DNA of 61,461 nucleotides, the filler included, from Candidatus Nezhaarchaeota archaeon WYZ-LMO8 (GTDB lineage: Archaea > Thermoproteota > Methanomethylicia > Nezhaarchaeales > WYZ-LMO8): assembly GCA_004347965.1 (NCBI GenBank). It is 7 parts of 7 records of this genome, joined end to end, with 100 filler letters (N's around TTAATTAATTAA, not from the genome) between each part and the next. Parts side by side here need not be neighbours in the genome. Positions count along the whole stretch, not along the records: positions 28,220 to 36,692 come from QNVF01000043.1; 6 more parts are not named here. One strand, given 5' to 3'. Numbering within the stretch: position 1 is the stretch's first letter; the number at the start of each line of letters is the position of its first letter. The position numbers are program-made. This document shows positions 30,001-36,000 of this stretch, one piece after another.

Positions 30001-33000
30001 GGTTGAGCGCACGTTAGAGAAGATAACATTAGATATTGGGGAGGAGGCTAGGATCATAGTTAAGTATAGGCTTAGAGAGATGGGCTACGATGTCGAAGTA
30101 GGCTCATTAATATTGCCGGAAGCTGAGATAAACATTTACGGAGTCTCGGATGAGATTTGCGTTGTAGGTGAAGCGTCCGTTAGAGCGTCTGCGAACATAA
30201 TCGACAAGATAAATGATAGTCTCGAGAAGCTAAGAACTCAATACCCAGACAAGCTTAGATCGAAAATACTGAAGGTCGTTTACACTAGCCTAGCTATGCC
30301 AGACCTAATTGAGAGAGCCGAGAAGGAGGATATATGGGTTTTAAAGGCTACAGGCGATACAGTTAAGCCCAAAATTTACAGTTAAATCGACTTAATAGCC
30401 ACGATTTACTTTCTAAATTTCAAAAATAGAAAGTTTAGCGAAGTTGACTTGAATTATGACTTTCAGAGTTACTTCCTCATCATCCATACATTGTAACTCA
30501 CGATCAATCTCGATGCACTGTACATATTCGTGAAATAGGGAGTGGCTAAAAGCATTATTAATAGGTGGACTTCGTAATGTTTTATGGTGGGTGCGTTGAA
30601 CCTCTCAACTGATAAGATTAGAGAAGCTTTCAAAGTCGTGTACCTTTCTAGAGAGAGGTATAGGACGACTAAAAGAGACTTGCAGAGCTCGCTGAGATTA
30701 GGCGCCTTAGCGAGGGAGCTTAGCAGCTCGTATTTAGAGGTGATTGAGTGGAAGGAGTGGAAGAGGGTCTTAGCGCTGAGGACCTAGCAGAAAAGCTCTA
30801 TAAAGAATTTGAGAAAAGCATACTACCAAAGCTCTTAGAGATTCCAGAGGAGACCAAGAGGTACCTCTACTTCATGGCGTGGCTCAATGAGGAGCTAGAA
30901 AGGAGAGATCTAGGTCGAGTAATAGTAACCGGCGGATTTGCTGTCGAAGTGTATACGGGGAGAATGCACAGGACCATGGACGTCGACGTAATAGTAGAAG
31001 GCGTTAATGCCATCAAAGTGGTTGAAACCTTCCTCACAAAGTTCTCAGAGAGAATAGGTCGAGGCTACCTACCGAGGTATGAAGTTTTGCAGCTAAAGTC
31101 TATAGACATAGTGTCCCCGATCTATGGGAAGAAAGCTCAGCCGACGAAGCTGCTGGTGGAAGGGCTTAGCATCTACTTAGAGCCCGTGGAGGAGCTAATA
31201 ATCACCTACTTAGCCGGCTGGAAGTACTGGAGTGCAACCGAGGATAGAGACAAAGCCCTCTGGTTATTCATAGCGTGGAGGGACAGACTAAACCATGACC
31301 ATCTCGAGAAAAGATCTAGAGAAGAGAGAGTGGAAGACTACTTAGAGCTCTTGAAGAAGAATGCGAATAGAATTTAGAAAGGAGAAAGGTAGTTAACACT
31401 TCCTCAAGCAAGCCACCATCACATCTCTGGTCGTTACTATTAGCATGCGCACCTAGAAGCTCATAGCAGCCGTGATGAAACCTTGAAATCTGGGGGATCA
31501 GTCTCAATTTCACTAACCTATTGCGCCCCTTAGATTACAAAATCTCCCAATAGCTTTATGCTTCACTGACACTAACCATAGACTTTAAGCAACACATGCA
31601 CTTAACTGATTCTATAATCGCGTGAGGTTTAATATCTAGACAGTCACCCTCAAATGAGCTATTTCCTCTTCACATCAAGGCTCTTTAAGCGCAAGTTGCC
31701 ATGTTGAAACTTATCAGAGCTTCATTGTTTAGAGCCCAAGTTCATTGCTATTCTCCTTAGAAGCTCTTCCTCGCTCACATCTAACGCGTGAAGCCAAGTC
31801 TCTAACTGCCACTCGACCGGGATAACTGATATGCCCGCTTCTTCGAGCACTTTTACTTCATCTCTCGAGTTCTCGTAGTTCCACTTAGGCATTATGAACT
31901 TCTTAACCTTGACCCTCTTAGTCTTAATAGCCGCTATTATCTTACCTGCCCCTCTCCAACCTAGCCCCCCAACAGGACCAATCCTACCTTTGATGTCGGT
32001 TTTACCGGTCATTACGATTGATGGGCTTACCGACAACCCCGAAAGCTCTGATATCGCCGCTACACTAAGTGCAACTCCAAGACTTGGGCCTGAGACTCCT
32101 CCCCCTGGAATTCCCTCAAGGGGGCTTACTACTTGGAATCTGAAGTCGTAATCGCTTATATCGATGCCGAGCTTCTTATTCAAGTAAAGCTTTATGTAGT
32201 CCACAGCGTTTTGTGCACTTTCAATAACGCTCACGTCTTCGACGGTGGTCATAGGGCTGATTGCTACAGATTTTGCAGCTCCAGTTACTGTGACTTTACC
32301 GGTACCTTTACTAATCGCACACTCTACTATCAGTAGCATTCCTCTTCTACCTTGAGGATCTGTTGCAAGTCCTAGAGCTACTCCAGGTCCTTGAACCACC
32401 ATGCTTTCTTGGGCATCCATGAGCTCCCTGTCGACCTCGTGCTCTAAAAGCTCTGCGGCCTTTTCGAAGTGATATAACCTTATCTTGTAAGACTCAGGTG
32501 TTATTCTTGATAATAAGTCCGCATCGATAGGCCCCATGAGTTCTCTTATCCTCTCTAAGTCCTCTTTGTAAACCTGGTACACCTCAACAAGTCTTATCTT
32601 GTCCCCTGCCTTCATAGCCTTAACGTATTCGCTTGCAGCTACGACCTCCTGGCTTCTCAACCTATTAGCTTCTCTTATTACTTCAGCTATGACCCTCGGT
32701 GAGACAACCCTAAACCTCTTAATTATGCTTAAAACTCCTTCGGGTGTAACCTCTTCGTGCAAGTGAAACATGTATTGCCTCAAATGTACTCTTACCACGT
32801 CAAGTCTTTCAGAGTCATTTCTAGGAAGCGGTACCTCGATTATGTAGGGCTCAAACCTGTTTAAGACAGCTTCATCTATTGCATCAAGCCTGTTAGTTGC
32901 AGCTATCACTATCACGTTTTCAAGAGGTTGCAAACCGTCGAGCTCCGTCAGTATTTGTGCTGTTAATCTATCGCTTACTGGATCTCCTCTCCTTTTATTA

Positions 33001-36000
33001 GCTATAACGTCAAATTCGTCAAAGAATATTATGCTTGGAGCATTTCTTCTAGCAAGCTGAAATAGGTCTTTAATGTTCTTCTCAGGGTCCCCAACCCATT
33101 TCGCATTCATAAGTAGTTGAGCTGCTGGAACGTAAAAGAACGTTGCATCACACTCTTTCGCTATGGCTTTTGACAAGTAAGTCTTACCACATCCTGGTTC
33201 TCCCCACAGCAAGAAGCCTTTGGGTGGAACCCAATTTAACTTACTGGCAAGTTCTGGTTTAAGGCTGAGAGATATGATCTTAAAGACCTTCTCTTTAATT
33301 CCAAAGAGCCCGCCTACGTCTTCATAACTTACAGCTGGCTTTACCTTGAGGACGGAGCTTAAGACCTCAGTACTCTTCTCCTGCTCCACGTAACCTCTTA
33401 GCTCCCTAGCTATAAGCTTGAAGTCATCTATGGTGACTTTGTATGAGAATTGCTCACTTCTTGGAGCACCTAGCATCCTAAACAGCTTCTCTCTTAATGG
33501 CTCAACCTTTCTTACTCTAACCTTGTTACAGGCATCTATGATGTCAAAGGGGGTGAGTTGAGTCTGCCTATAGGAGCTTACAGACCTTTCAAGCACAGTC
33601 ATTACTTCTTCAGGGTCTAAGTACGTCCATCCATATTTCTTGAGCTCAGCTTTTAAGACGGCAAGTAACATTTCTCGAGTTATGTTTTGATCAAGATCTA
33701 TTACGTATGCTCTTCTCCTGATGTCTTCTCTTATAGATTCAAACATGTTCGTAGCAGCTATGATCACTATCCTCTCATTGGTATTAATTACTCTATTAAG
33801 GTACTCTATGAAGACATCCTGAACTCTTACGTCTTCTCTATCAGCTCCATACAAAGGCTTATCAACCTTCATACCGATGCTATGGAATTCGTCAAAGAAT
33901 ATGACGCTTGGTGTGTCCTCAGCTCTCTTGAATACAATTGCAAGATTTCTTATCGATTGACCATATAGCGGATGAAATATCTCATCACTATTGACAACTA
34001 TTGGCTGAACATTAATTCCCAACTTCAAACCATAAACTACAGCTTCTCTAAGACAAACCTCCGCTAACAAAGACTTTCCAGAACCTGTTGAGCCCTTTAA
34101 GATAAAGAACTTTGGAGGAGGTGCGCCTTTAAATAGCTCCTTCACAGTAGGGTCCTCTATCACATGATACGCTATAGCTGTCATTATTGTTTGAAACTCC
34201 TTATCTCTACCTATCAAATCGTCCTTGGTATTAGGGAACTTCTTGTTAAGTTCATGAAGTCTCTTCTTGAGCTTCTTTGGCGTTAACTTTGCATTCCTCC
34301 ATCTCCTGTACTCTCTATTGGATAAGTATAGAGGGAGTGATAGGAGGGTCCTTAACTTAGGTCTTAAGAGCCACCAAGGTTTCTTCTCTTCAATCTCTCT
34401 CATCGATAAACTCATACCAGCCCCTCCAGTGAACAACTCCATACAATATGGCTAAACCAATAAACATGATAAGCGATATTATGAGGTTCCCAAGCTTAAG
34501 GTCTATTGAGAGTGTAGCGGCTAATGAGTACGCAAGCACACCAACAGTTATGAGAACCACAGCAGCACATGATAATGCAAAAGCGTAAAACATGTATCTT
34601 AGCACTAGGGCTATACTGTCATTAATGCTCCATCTACCAGTCTTTCTCACCTTCATGTCCTTGAGGTCGAGATAGGCGGTTAAGCCAAAGAGTAGTATGA
34701 AAACTGCATAGACCACAATCCCCCAAGGCTCCACAGACCATAAGCTGAGGGAAACAGGTATCTTACTAATAATAGATTGCGAGTCTATCTCTGACGTCAA
34801 GGGGATTACAAGCTTAAATGTTATGTTCCCTGGACAATGGTATGTATTAAGCCTTACCTCACCTTCCTGCGAATACTTTGTAAGTGTTAAGTTAAAGGAT
34901 CCTATCGAAGAAAATAAGAGCTCGCACATGCTCCTCTTGTAGGTCGTTGGATTAATTATCGTAAGAGTTACAATGCTTCTAAAACCTTCACGAAATGCTT
35001 CCTCAACTTTAATTGAAACATCCGGCGGGATTAAGTAATTGAGAGTTACTACATAAGTTCCCTGAACCTTAATCATGAGGAGTTCCCCACTTCTAAGTAC
35101 AACGTCGTCACTTATCGCAGTAATCATTGGTTCTTGTGCACATACCATTGTGAGGCTCATGAATATCAAGATTAGTGATGATGTGAACATGAAGCGTGAT
35201 ATCAAATCATTTATCCCCTTAATCTCACACTTGACGGGGCTCCATAAAAACTGTTCTTCAAGTCTTTCTAGTTCATTGCATCCTTTAAATGCAAGATAGT
35301 TGCTCTAAAACAGCTACTTCTTAGTTTCCTTTTCTCAAGAAACTTTCTTAGGACATCTTGCTTTTTAGTAAATCATCATTGCCAGGGAAACTTCATGCTA
35401 AATAATAGTTAGTTGAAAGATTTATTACCTTAGAAGAATCATTAAATAAACCTTAAAGTCAAAGCTAATAGTATGAAGTCGAGGTTTTAGCCATGAAAGT
35501 TCTTTCAACTCGTGAGAAGGTAGGTGCATTAAAAGAAATCGTAGGCCCTGAGAACGTCATAGACAGCAAGCCAGCTTTACTCATATATTCTAAGGATGCG
35601 AGCCCGATGAGAGGTAAGGTGCCCATAGCAGTTGTGAGACCATCATCTACGGAAGAGGTACAGAGGATAATCTTATGGGCTAACGAGACCAGGACTCCTC
35701 TATATCCTAGAAGCGGTGGCACAAGCTTGTGGGGAGCGATTCCCGTTGTTGAGGGAAGTGTCGTCGTAGACCTGTCAAGAATGAACAGAGTAATAAACAT
35801 TGACGAAAGAAACCTTGTGTGCGTTGTTGAACCAGCCATTACCTTCGGAGAGCTGGAGAATATCTTAGCGAAGCGGGGGCTAAGGTTCATAATGAGCCCA
35901 GAAAACGGAATGGGGGCAACTGTCGGCGGAAACTTTGCAAGTCATGGAACTGGTTGGGGGGCTGGGCCTAACTTCTCAAATCAAGGAGATTGTGTGTTAG

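Follow-up and report, generated by a model that had tools for sequence, protein, structure and literature searches.

LonB (MEROPS S16.005; A. fulgidus, T. onnurineus) carries an ATPase and a C-terminal Ser-Lys Lon domain in a single chain, with one Lon-type AAA+ module that contains the membrane anchor. LonA also has one AAA+ module. In their accessible parts, two reviews place all Lons among the one-module AAA+ proteases (PMC6722904; PMC9569914), and one of them gives the Ser-Lys spacing of LonA and LonB as exactly 42 residues (PMC9569914). FtsH combines a classical-clade AAA ATPase with a zinc M41 peptidase in one chain laid out as TM helix, outside domain, TM helix(es), AAA and protease. 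Cdc48/VAT/p97 consists of tandem classical AAA modules D1 and D2 with pore loops in both rings and works with a docked 20S proteasome. In ClpAP and ClpCP a double-ring motor of another AAA+ clade feeds the chamber of a serine protease that is a separate subunit.

Here we analyzed a window of 61,461 nucleotides from Candidatus Nezhaarchaeota archaeon WYZ-LMO8, in which one gene combines two classical AAA modules with a Lon protease domain. Taking the locus as a whole, we estimate a probability of roughly 65% that two overlapping genes encode one membrane-tethered, ATP-dependent, self-compartmentalising three-tier (D1-D2-Lon) protease, which would work like FtsH or LonB.

One reading frame encodes two AAA modules and a Lon domain

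The protease gene and its parts are as follows.

31722..34415, minus strand: tandem-AAA Lon protease gene, 897 aa plus stop (ORF and translation; two AAA stretches and Lon_C by Pfam)
34221..34415, minus strand: N-terminal basic helical region, residues 1-65 (alignment; model helices at 14-59)
33411..34220, minus strand: AAA module D1, residues 66-335 (Pfam, alignment, sequence check)
34071-34094, minus strand: D1 Walker A GSTGSGKS (sequence check)
33888-33893, minus strand: D1 Walker B D175-E176 (sequence check)
32616..33332, minus strand: AAA module D2, residues 362-600 (Pfam, alignment, sequence check)
33180-33203, minus strand: D2 Walker A GEPGCGKT (sequence check)
33015-33020, minus strand: D2 Walker B D466-E467 (sequence check)
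32406..32615, minus strand: helical linker from D2 to the protease domain, residues 601-670 (model helices at 573-670; family-specific)
31776..32405, minus strand: Lon (S16) protease domain, residues 671-880 (Pfam, alignment, profile match to A. fulgidus LonB)
32082-32084, minus strand: predicted catalytic Ser778 in GPS (sequence check)
31941-31943, minus strand: predicted catalytic Lys825 in GK (sequence check)

The longest form of the ORF (31722..34442, minus strand) comprises 906 aa, while the called start, an ATG at 34415, gives 897 aa. Pfam analysis of this protein returned AAA (PF00004) in two stretches, the better at 402-524, and Lon_C at 665-869 (E 6.8e-17), which bears out the domain order given in the preliminary description, namely two classical AAA modules followed by a Lon domain in one frame. 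The AF2 model had a mean pLDDT of 80.4.

Homologues fell into 80 clusters at E <= 1e-161, followed by a drop to Cdc48 proteins at 4e-82 that carry PF02359 and PF02933. Both PF00004 and PF05362 were present in 76 of the 80 clusters and in 35/35 aligned family members. Clustering at 50% identity left 21 full-length representatives; all 21 had two AAA stretches and 19 had two Walker A motifs by regex. A profile spanning the linker and protease domain set 33 family representatives (E <= 1e-30) apart from ordinary Lon_C proteins, which matched it at positions of about 100-330 only.

The N-terminal basic region contains three tryptophans (W14, W15 and W39) that were invariant in the alignment of 35 sequences. 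D1 displayed the pore loop LYG (Y151, G152) and arginines R233-R235; D2 displayed the pore loop KWVG, the sensor-1 residue N508 and the arginine finger R520.

Comparison with described AAA+ proteases

In the broad sense of MEROPS S16, a Lon_C fold with a Ser-Lys dyad, the protein is a member of the Lon family. It differs from the described forms in its two PF00004 stretches and two Walker A/B pairs in place of one AAA+ module, and in 46 instead of 42 residues between Ser778 and Lys825, the longer spacing being due to a four-residue insertion (GWRG) in front of the lysine.

The closest solved protease domain is that of LonB. The previously reported match to the A. fulgidus domain 1z0b was reproduced with a profile built on the last 338 aa, which matched 1z0c/1z0b (E 7e-22) with GPS aligned to GDS and GK to QK; 3k1j followed at E 7e-19. 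Like LonB, the tandem protease probably works at the membrane. In contrast to LonB, its two AAA modules are classical and free of an insertion: no hydrophobic segment was detected in D1 or D2, and the only segments scored were core helices of the protease domain. The anchor, an insertion in LonB, would here be encoded separately or fused to the N-terminus. The LonB motif [E/D]GDSA[S/T] is replaced by VSGPSLG, in which Pro777, standing where LonB has Asp, is invariant. Model TIGR00764 (LonB) scored 59.9 bits, from the protease domain only, against a cut-off of 516.6. The Pro-Ser motif of the active centre is shared with LonA, for which PKDGPSA is quoted in the accessible text of PMC2605481. However, the LON N-terminal domain of LonA was absent from the tandem protease and from 35/35 members by Pfam, and TIGR00763 (LonA) gave 80.9 bits against a cut-off of 608.

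The best matches in sequence and in fold were VAT (5g4g, E 1.5e-78) and p97, respectively; with Foldseek the model matched p97/Cdc48 over about 635 columns (E 4.6e-29). D2 aligned to both VAT D1 and VAT D2 with about 130-137 bits. The designation of the modules as Cdc48-like stands for similarity but not for kinship. When 55 AAA modules were placed in a tree, with thin outgroup sampling, D1 and D2 both lay outside the group of Cdc48 D1, Cdc48 D2 and PAN (86/93), and neither grouped with a Cdc48 module. Moreover, the Cdc48 N-domain (double-psi barrel and beta-clam; PF02359, PF02933) was missing from 35/35 members, TIGR01243 (Cdc48) scored 214.1 bits against a cut-off of 802.65, and genuine Cdc48 genes are kept in the genome beside the tandem protease. 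The peptidase is docked in the Cdc48 system and fused here. As the scores lay below the family cut-offs, membership of LonA, LonB and Cdc48 was rejected, in agreement with the earlier view of a distinct, conserved two-ring architecture.

The layout of FtsH is matched once the neighboring membrane protein described below is counted, and D2 scored 142 bits on the FtsH model. FtsH, however, has one AAA ring and a zinc peptidase instead of two rings and a Ser-Lys protease. PF01434 (M41) was not found in the tandem protease, and unlike in FtsH the membrane part is a separate polypeptide in the Thermoproteota system. The peptidase that docks to the Clp ATPases is heptameric, and these ATPases are assigned to the other AAA+ clade (PMC6722904, in part).

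AAA-AAA-Lon_C is not among the Lon_C architectures in the accessible part of a 2008 survey (PMC2605481). Our literature searches also turned up no description of a tandem-AAA Lon, as the preliminary description had reported. A two-ring Lon with a membrane anchor looks undescribed, and the assignment of the neighboring gene to the machine is new.

An overlapping gene encodes a conserved, probable membrane partner

The gene upstream of the protease gene overlaps it by 26 nt and has the following features.

34390..35205, minus strand: partner membrane protein gene, 271 aa (ORF; conserved next to the protease gene)
34792..35127, minus strand: predicted extracytoplasmic beta-sandwich, residues 27-138 (model)
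34393..34743, minus strand: three-helix membrane module and acidic cytoplasmic tail (..WYEFIDERD), residues 155-271 (alignment, model)
34423..34427, minus strand: GGAGG, Shine-Dalgarno-like, within the partner CDS, 8-12 nt upstream of the protease ATG

Judged by its sequence and position, GGAGG is a Shine-Dalgarno-like site for coupled translation. The partner matched no Pfam, NCBIfam or PADLOC family. Its structure model (pLDDT 88.9) starts with a hydrophobic helix at residues 2-22. Fold searches with the beta-sandwich returned generic Ig-like matches only, and this domain is missing from the Bathyarchaeia and Asgard versions.

A scan of 185,579 species genomes returned 79 loci, 71 of them assessable. 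A membrane protein of the partner's build adjoined the protease gene in 71/71, and an HMM recovered it in 70; in the remaining locus (L103) an overlapping upstream membrane protein had the same build. Type A partners lay directly upstream and overlapping in 26 loci and were fused to the protease in three (L086, L087 and L088, in which the HMM of the three-helix module matched the protease ORF itself). Type B partners were found upstream in 27 loci and divergently oriented within 15-105 nt in 14. By hhalign (probability 0.3% and 5.4%) the two types could not be shown to be homologous; for type B, an anchor role is therefore suggested by architecture and position alone. Five Asgard members (989-1015 aa) carry the three-helix module at the N-terminus of the protease, with the junction ..YELIDEE-x4-KPWW.., and the basic region stands directly after it. 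The minimal partner, in Bathyarchaeia, is the three-helix module alone (124-134 aa). By this conserved pairing the overlapping upstream gene is a partner of the protease, and the N-terminal fusion in Asgard makes a membrane-tethered machine most likely.

Complex prediction was performed with protease residues 1-340 and partner residues 150-271. The ipSAE was 0.55 compared to 0.00 for the best of three controls, which the tool rates as 'weak support'. Its mark is reached by 116/157 solved complexes and 2/215 mismatched pairs, while values of 0.60 or below comprise only 18 of those 157 complexes and both passing mismatches. Contacts agreed by at least 95% between runs and the partner pLDDT was at least 80, but no interface was returned. 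The prior for such a complex is already high because of the Asgard fusion.

The weak score would also suit a soluble, cytosolic two-ring Lon-type protease, with the membrane protein as its substrate, its regulator or the sensor that signals to it (anti-sigma-like control) and not as a stable anchor. The Thermoproteota enzyme itself has no transmembrane helix, the partner ectodomain could be a sensor, and in the 14 divergent type B loci the partner is not co-transcribed. We nevertheless consider this reading unlikely. The five Asgard enzymes are covalently joined to the membrane module and thereby fixed at the membrane, which is hard to reconcile with a substrate. The pairing in all assessable loci and the reduction of the Bathyarchaeia partner to its membrane module also speak against this reading.

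Conservation of the catalytic layers

The alignment of 35 sequences covered three sublineages and relatives down to 36-41% identity. Both Walker A/B pairs, the aromatic pore loops, the arginine fingers and the Ser778/Lys825 dyad were invariant in 35/35. The residues listed as invariant in a smaller set (G108, G111, G113, K114; D175, E176; G405, G408, G410, K411, T412; D466, E467; G776, P777, S778; G824, K825) all remained so, and the coordinates of the motif residues were checked against the sequence. D2 has a single conserved arginine compared to two in classical AAA proteins.

Some features might point to one dead catalytic layer, in a protein whose main role is that of an unfoldase or segregase and which is no true two-motor protease. 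Either D1 would serve for assembly only, like NSF D2 or p97 D1, or it would be the Lon domain that acts as a scaffold, a role it has in non-peptidase Lon homologues. D1 is highly diverged and forms a clade with 100/100 support on a very long branch (2.37) in the module tree. The Ser-Lys spacing is odd, the AF2 model is poor at residues 767-775 just ahead of Ser778 (pLDDT below 50), and in some distant representatives the regex finds no Walker A in D1 or no GPS motif. In view of the long branch and these gaps, the D1 ring of some lineages could be structural or regulatory. For the family as a whole a dead layer seems quite improbable, as dead sites are not expected to keep the D1 Walker motifs, pore-loop Tyr/Gly and RRR and the protease GPS and GK invariant down to 36% identity.

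Model of the tandem protease

The observations behind the model of a membrane-tethered protease are the domain composition, the conserved motifs, the pairing and fusion of the two genes and the absence of LonB and FtsH from the assembly. From them we infer that the enzyme is a hexamer with two active rings, how the parts lie relative to the membrane, that the unfused partner binds and which substrates are taken. The 271-aa partner would sit in the membrane with a signal/anchor helix, an outside beta-sandwich, three TM helices and an acidic cytoplasmic tail, and would keep the enzyme's basic helical region on the cytoplasmic side. As the trans-acting arginines R233-R235 and R520 are conserved, the enzyme may form a hexamer with the D1 ring above the D2 ring and the latter above the Lon ring. 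The substrates would most likely be proteins in or near the membrane. Aromatic pore loops in D1 (Y151) and D2 (W440) would grip them, ATP hydrolysis would drive their unfolding and their passage through the two rings, and the Ser778-Lys825 dyads would cut them in the chamber. The role would be that of LonB in other archaea and FtsH in bacteria, performed with a double motor like that of Cdc48/VAT or ClpA.

A wider proposal, which in our view has an even chance of being correct, would add a fifth kind of single-chain or self-contained AAA+ protease to LonA/B/C, FtsH and the docked systems (Clp, proteasome). On a dedicated membrane anchor, split in TACK and fused in Asgard, a three-tier hexamer would extract and degrade membrane proteins where LonB is missing. 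The congruent D1 and D2 trees suggest that the tandem form arose once; it would then have been inherited across Thermoproteota and Asgard. If true, it would be the counterpart, in one piece, of Cdc48-dependent extraction and subsequent proteolysis in lineages without LonB.

Distribution and genomic context

The assembly is 93% complete. In agreement with the reported lack of a canonical LonB, no LonB above the cut-off was found in it, the best TIGR00764 score being 55.7 bits against 516.6, and neither was an M41 peptidase (FtsH; PF01434). The single other Lon_C gene, likewise known from the preliminary description and without an ATPase, was recovered as a 277-aa ORF on contig C42. Cdc48, PAN-like and three proteasome (20S) genes are present, suggesting that the tandem protease adds to the proteasome system and does not substitute for it.

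Presence in Thermoproteota, first reported for 17/81 genomes, was corroborated, with the frequency now 55/401 in a wider sample. LonB-like genes (about 345-370 bits) occurred in 22 of the 401 genomes and in none of the 55 tandem carriers; this mutually exclusive distribution in the sample is confounded by phylogeny, as related genomes are not independent. A second Lon match in a frame of 570-750 aa was not detected in the 55 carrier genomes. All carriers of the tandem form are metagenome-assembled genomes.

PADLOC matches to IetA (130 bits) and TRIP13, an intein in one distant representative and an extra peptidase domain in another might hint at an accessory module, such as anti-virus defence or mobile-element cargo, and not a housekeeping protease. 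This is very improbable, since the matches span the generic AAA core of D2 only and the partner has none, while each genome has a single copy of the gene, its identity across whole classes is 57-100%, the D1 and D2 trees are congruent, and the flanking genes are ordinary ones with FAD-binding and CBS domains.

Integrity of the gene

The window consists of concatenated contigs and the true Cdc48 genes of the assembly are broken at contig ends, but an artificial joining of a Cdc48-type gene to a Lon gene during assembly or gene calling can practically be discounted, as more than 100 contigs, obtained in different studies and some of them 0.3 to 1.4 Mb long, contain the same single frame, and independent DNA contigs were identical over the gene. 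A contig from an RNA library spanned 34260-34544 and bridged the gene overlap with four differences, which is only a hint because such libraries can contain DNA. In a run that carries no flag as possible source, contigs displayed 0 differences across the gene junction (33842-34772; X10 record 7).

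Domain organization of the tandem-AAA Lon enzyme

The enzyme gene is located on contig C38 of the assembly (78 contigs, 1.35 Mb, 93% complete). The features considered in the window are:

31722-34442 at longest, minus strand: tandem-AAA Lon enzyme gene, a single open frame (906 aa)
34390-35205, minus strand: partner ORF (271 aa), 26-nt overlap with the enzyme gene
35493-36740, plus strand: FAD_binding_4 protein, divergent from the partner gene
37791-38834, plus strand: protein with four CBS domains, a further neighbour

Four further neighbouring ORFs matched no Pfam family. As the window consists of joined contigs of one assembly (C35 at 1-9482, C38 from 28220), gene order across the joins is meaningless. 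Translation of the enzyme from its called start, the ATG at 34415, gives a protein of 897 aa; a GGAGG lies 8-12 nt before this ATG.

Pfam searches assigned PF00004 (AAA) to two stretches of the enzyme (whole-protein E 1.1e-54; best stretch 402-524) and Lon_C (PF05362) to residues 665-869 (E 6.8e-17). Together with the single ORF, these matches bear out the preliminary description of two AAA modules and Lon_C in one chain. Both families were found in 35/35 family members, and neither a Cdc48 N-domain nor a LON domain was detected by Pfam in any of the 35. The NCBIfam CDC48 model was colinear with residues 58-670 but reached 214 bits compared with a cut-off of 802, and the lon and LonB models matched the C-terminal part only, far under their cut-offs. 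By sequence, the closest solved structures were VAT (5g4g, E 1.5e-78) and p97; by fold, the enzyme resembled p97/Cdc48 across about 635 columns (E 4.6e-29). Its AF2 model had a mean pLDDT of 80.4 and a pTM of 0.45. A role in a defence system was discarded, PADLOC matches being limited to the generic AAA core.

Conservation of ATPase and protease residues

Conservation was assessed in an alignment of 35 homologues with 93% down to 36% identity to the window enzyme. Invariant in all 35 were the D1 Walker A (G108, G111, G113, K114) and Walker B residues (D175, E176), the D1 pore loop residues Y151 and G152 and the D1 arginines R233, R234 and R235. The same holds for the D2 Walker A (G405, P407, G408, G410, K411, T412) and Walker B (D466, E467), sensor-1 N508, the arginine finger R520 and the D2 pore-loop neighbourhood (G442, P444, E445, K446). 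In the protease domain, G776, P777 and S778 as well as G824 and K825 were invariant. The invariance of the Walker A/B and Ser/Lys residues listed earlier was thus reproduced in the larger alignment, and the window coordinates of the AAA and protease motifs were checked against the sequence.

A profile of the protease domain (C-terminal 338 residues) matched the A. fulgidus LonB protease domain with E 7e-22, T. onnurineus LonB with 7e-19, LonA with 3e-16 and LonC with about 8e-6. In the LonB alignment, GPS of the enzyme was placed over GDS and GK over QK, and four inserted residues of the enzyme precede the Lys. Hence, the Ser-Lys dyad is spaced by 46 residues and not by 42, the value given as exact for LonA and LonB in the available text of PMC9569914. 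The same text describes a Pro before the Ser as a trait of A-type centres, which is also present in the enzyme.

Size and distribution of the family

A word-indexed search retrieved 80 clusters with E <= 1e-161, 76 of them carrying both Pfam families, followed by a drop to genuine Cdc48 at 4e-82. In public sources these proteins go by no names other than 'AAA family ATPase', 'SpoVK/Ycf46/Vps4 family' or 'hypothetical protein', and the protease has therefore been missed by genome annotations. When 1.84 billion 50%-identity representatives were searched exhaustively by HMMER with a profile of linker plus protease domain, 33 proteins were retrieved at E <= 1e-30; matches below these, at 5e-28 and weaker, covered the Lon_C part only. 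At least 850 aa were found in 21/33 proteins, all 21 of which contained two AAA stretches (Lon_C at E <= 1e-6 in 20/21). Two distant members displayed peculiarities. P0152 (1261 aa) harbors an intein (Intein_splicing and LAGLIDADG_3) within or after D2, and P0140 (1120 aa) has an extra C-terminal PF04450 (BSP peptidase) after Lon_C and no D1 Walker A recognizable by regular expression.

In a sample of 401 Thermoproteota genomes searched with a C-terminal query, group A of the tandem Lon was found in 24 genomes (E <= 1e-89, 57-100% identity) and group B in 31 (32-44% identity). Apart from pieces truncated by contig ends, the frames of both groups comprised about 900-957 aa. The presence across Thermoproteota noted in the preliminary description was confirmed, and its frequency of 17/81 genomes is replaced by 55/401. 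When 185,579 species were scanned, each represented by one genome, 79 loci were obtained, all from metagenome-assembled genomes. Group A carriers belong to Methanomethylicota (Verstraetearchaeota), Nezhaarchaeales, Hecatellales, Bathyarchaeia and Sulfolobales MAGs as well as to Promethearchaeota, Hodarchaeota and Odinarchaeota. Group B was present in Bathyarchaeota, Brockarchaeota, Nitrososphaerota-labelled MAGs and one Heimdallarchaeota. For a third group, comprising P0078-P0080 with 36-38% identity, there is no taxon label. The sole locus with a bacterial label among the 79, L077 (Candidatus Methylomirabilota bacterium), shows 57% identity to archaeal group A, ends at the contig edge and is likely a case of mis-binning.

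Origin of the AAA modules

In a maximum-likelihood tree of 55 AAA modules, the D1 modules of the tandem Lons formed one clade on a long branch (100/100) and the D2 modules another (94/80). Both clades were located outside a group of Cdc48 D1, Cdc48 D2, the PAN-like module and the one other single-module AAA (86/93). The idea that a Cdc48 lost its N-domain and acquired Lon_C was not supported, since D1 and D2 did not pair with D1 and D2 of Cdc48 in this tree, whose outgroups are thin (one PAN, one other single-module AAA). The D1 and D2 subtrees were alike in shape, both separating group B from groups A and C. This would be expected of a tandem with a single origin whose two modules have stayed together since.

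The partner protein and its fusion to the protease

The partner had no family match in Pfam, NCBIfam or PADLOC. Its model (pLDDT 88.9) predicts an N-terminal hydrophobic helix (2-22), a beta-sandwich (27-138) and long helices (160-187, 194-230, 239-260) followed by a short acidic tail. BLAST detected a partner homologue immediately upstream of the enzyme gene in 14/14 loci of an initial group A set; two Bathyarchaeia loci have a partner that consists of the three-helix module alone (124-134 aa).

The 79 loci were sorted with HMMs of the partner module (type A) and of the analogous upstream protein of group B (type B). Eight loci were set aside (protease ORF cut in 4, 5' side cut in 4), leaving 71 assessable ones, which are distributed as follows.

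Arrangement of partner and protease genes in 71 loci
Type A upstream and overlapping: 26/71
Type A fused inside the protease ORF: 3/71 (L086 Promethearchaeota, L087 Hodarchaeota, L088 Odinarchaeota)
Type B upstream, same strand: 27/71
Type B divergent, 15-105 nt from the protease start: 14/71
No HMM match, yet an overlapping upstream 309-aa membrane protein in the same layout: 1/71 (L103, Heimdallarchaeota)

Homology between type A and type B was not demonstrable by hhalign, which gave a probability of 0.3% when the type A membrane module was compared with type B and of 5.4% (E 0.007) for full-length profiles.

Five Asgard members of 989-1015 aa (P0045, P0063, P0064, P0066, P0069) possess an N-terminal extension of about 100 residues, which aligns with the partner membrane module in the alignment of enzyme homologues. 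Its motif, DMxVKxxxxW..DSxAL..RYxFY ... YELIDEE, leads directly into the conserved KPWW of the protease N-region. Judged from this alignment, the extension is a Rosetta-stone fusion of the partner membrane module and the protease, which argues for partner and enzyme as one putative membrane-bound unit. From the fusion we infer a topology in which the tail and the enzyme would reside inside the cell and the partner sandwich outside. Complex prediction for enzyme residues 1-340 and partner residues 150-271 resulted in an ipSAE of 0.55 (best of three controls 0.00), with at least 95% of contacts in agreement between runs and a partner pLDDT of at least 80. The ipSAE mark was passed by 116/157 solved complexes and 2/215 mismatches; at 0.60 or under were only 18/157 solved complexes and both passing mismatches. 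By the rating of the prediction tool, this is weak support for a contact between the two proteins.

Searches for a function of the partner's outside domain gave no usable lead. Foldseek had no match at E <= 0.001, the best one being the chagasin-type inhibitor EhICP2 (1.4e-3), and VIA-align retrieved generic Ig-like sandwiches and helical bundles with Z <= 7.5. A protein atlas search with the partner yielded only 'hypothetical protein' clusters (0.79 and 0.76), under the 0.9 level.

Gene overlap and expression

Measured from the longest ORFs (L037-L085, window 34390-34415), type A overlaps were 14, 17, 20, 26, 44, 47, 53, 56 or 62 nt. Every overlap equals 2 mod 3, which places the protease in frame +1 relative to the partner. 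A programmed +1 frameshift yielding a fused protein in Thermoproteota was considered, but coupled translation of partner and enzyme would be the simpler reading, because the ATG has its GGAGG 8-12 nt upstream and the ORFs are separate in 26/26 unfused type A loci.

The window DNA stretch recurs in hot-spring metagenomes of several studies, and contigs of runs not flagged as possible source showed 0 differences to it. One of them (sequencing run X10, record 7; 33842-34772; 0 differences) crosses the partner/enzyme gene junction. Near-identical contigs were present in one metatranscriptome library, one of which (34260-34544) bridges the gene overlap. As the library may contain DNA and a contig is no proof of a single transcript, this is only a hint. 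RNA run X13 had no cover at 31722-31961, 34602-34841 and 35082-35300, gaps from which nothing is concluded.

Proposed mechanism and relation to known proteases

Most likely, the enzyme is a protease of three tiers that assembles as a hexamer and is anchored by its partner to the cytoplasmic side of the membrane. Both the D1 and the D2 ring probably pull the substrate, as both have aromatic pore loops and complete ATPase sites, and the Lon ring would then degrade it. In proposed placement the enzyme would be similar to FtsH and LonB, in motor design to Cdc48/VAT and ClpA. It is outside LonA, LonB, Cdc48 and FtsH by their defining features, and by virtue of its protease domain it is a member of the S16 family in the broad sense only.

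In the available text of PMC6722904, Lons are classed among the one-module enzymes, a group with one AAA+ module and a fused or docked peptidase (Lon, FtsH, HslUV, PAN/20S, ClpXP), and two-module unfoldases (ClpA/C/E) dock on a separate peptidase. The table of Lon_C architectures in PMC2605481 contains none with two AAA modules, and the accessible part of this paper reports no Lon in five Crenarchaeota. Term searches of the text available from PMC5070193 and PMC11188069 gave no mention of Lon. Full-text searches of a literature collection with few subscription journals gave no description of a tandem-AAA Lon; an earlier mention in a genomic survey or in MEROPS is possible. By combining two motors with a protease in a single chain, the enzyme occupies the empty cell of the one-module/two-module protease table and offers a compact system in which the contribution of a second ring to unfolding force and processivity can be addressed. 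Its predicted membrane anchor is encoded as a subunit of its own in one lineage, whereas another lineage has it as a fused domain. The enzyme suggests how many TACK and Asgard archaea without LonB or FtsH degrade membrane proteins. Since the source organisms come from hot springs, the proteins may prove stable enough to be studied by cryo-EM and enzymology.

Other AAA and Lon-like proteins

The assembly encodes Cdc48, a PAN-like protein, another single-module AAA protein and three proteasome subunits. The genuine Cdc48 genes (contigs C2, C72, C17, C54) each break off at a contig end close to the D1/D2 junction, giving two N-halves and two C-halves; this points to a pair of near-identical paralogues as the cause of the breaks in the assembly. 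No M41 peptidase was found in the assembly. The earlier claim that it has no canonical LonB stands, the best score of 55.7 bits being under the cut-off. Among the 401 genomes, 22 contained a LonB-like gene that scored about 345-370 bits and lay in a frame of 735-782 aa, and 0 of these overlapped with the 55 tandem carriers, counts that are not independent among related genomes. A weaker Lon-like class, with about 130-165 bits against the LonB model and open frames of roughly 800-840 aa, was observed in about 20 Thermoproteota genomes (e.g. G200, G080, G024); it occurs together with the tandem form in two, G332 and G073, related genomes again not being independent. The second Lon_C gene of the assembly (G000 contig C42, L002:1234-2067, plus strand) codes for 277 aa without an ATPase, comprising an N-terminal hydrophobic helix and a protease domain with the A-type motif VDGPSAG. 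Short Lon_C frames of this kind (270-370 aa) were present in many of the 401 genomes.
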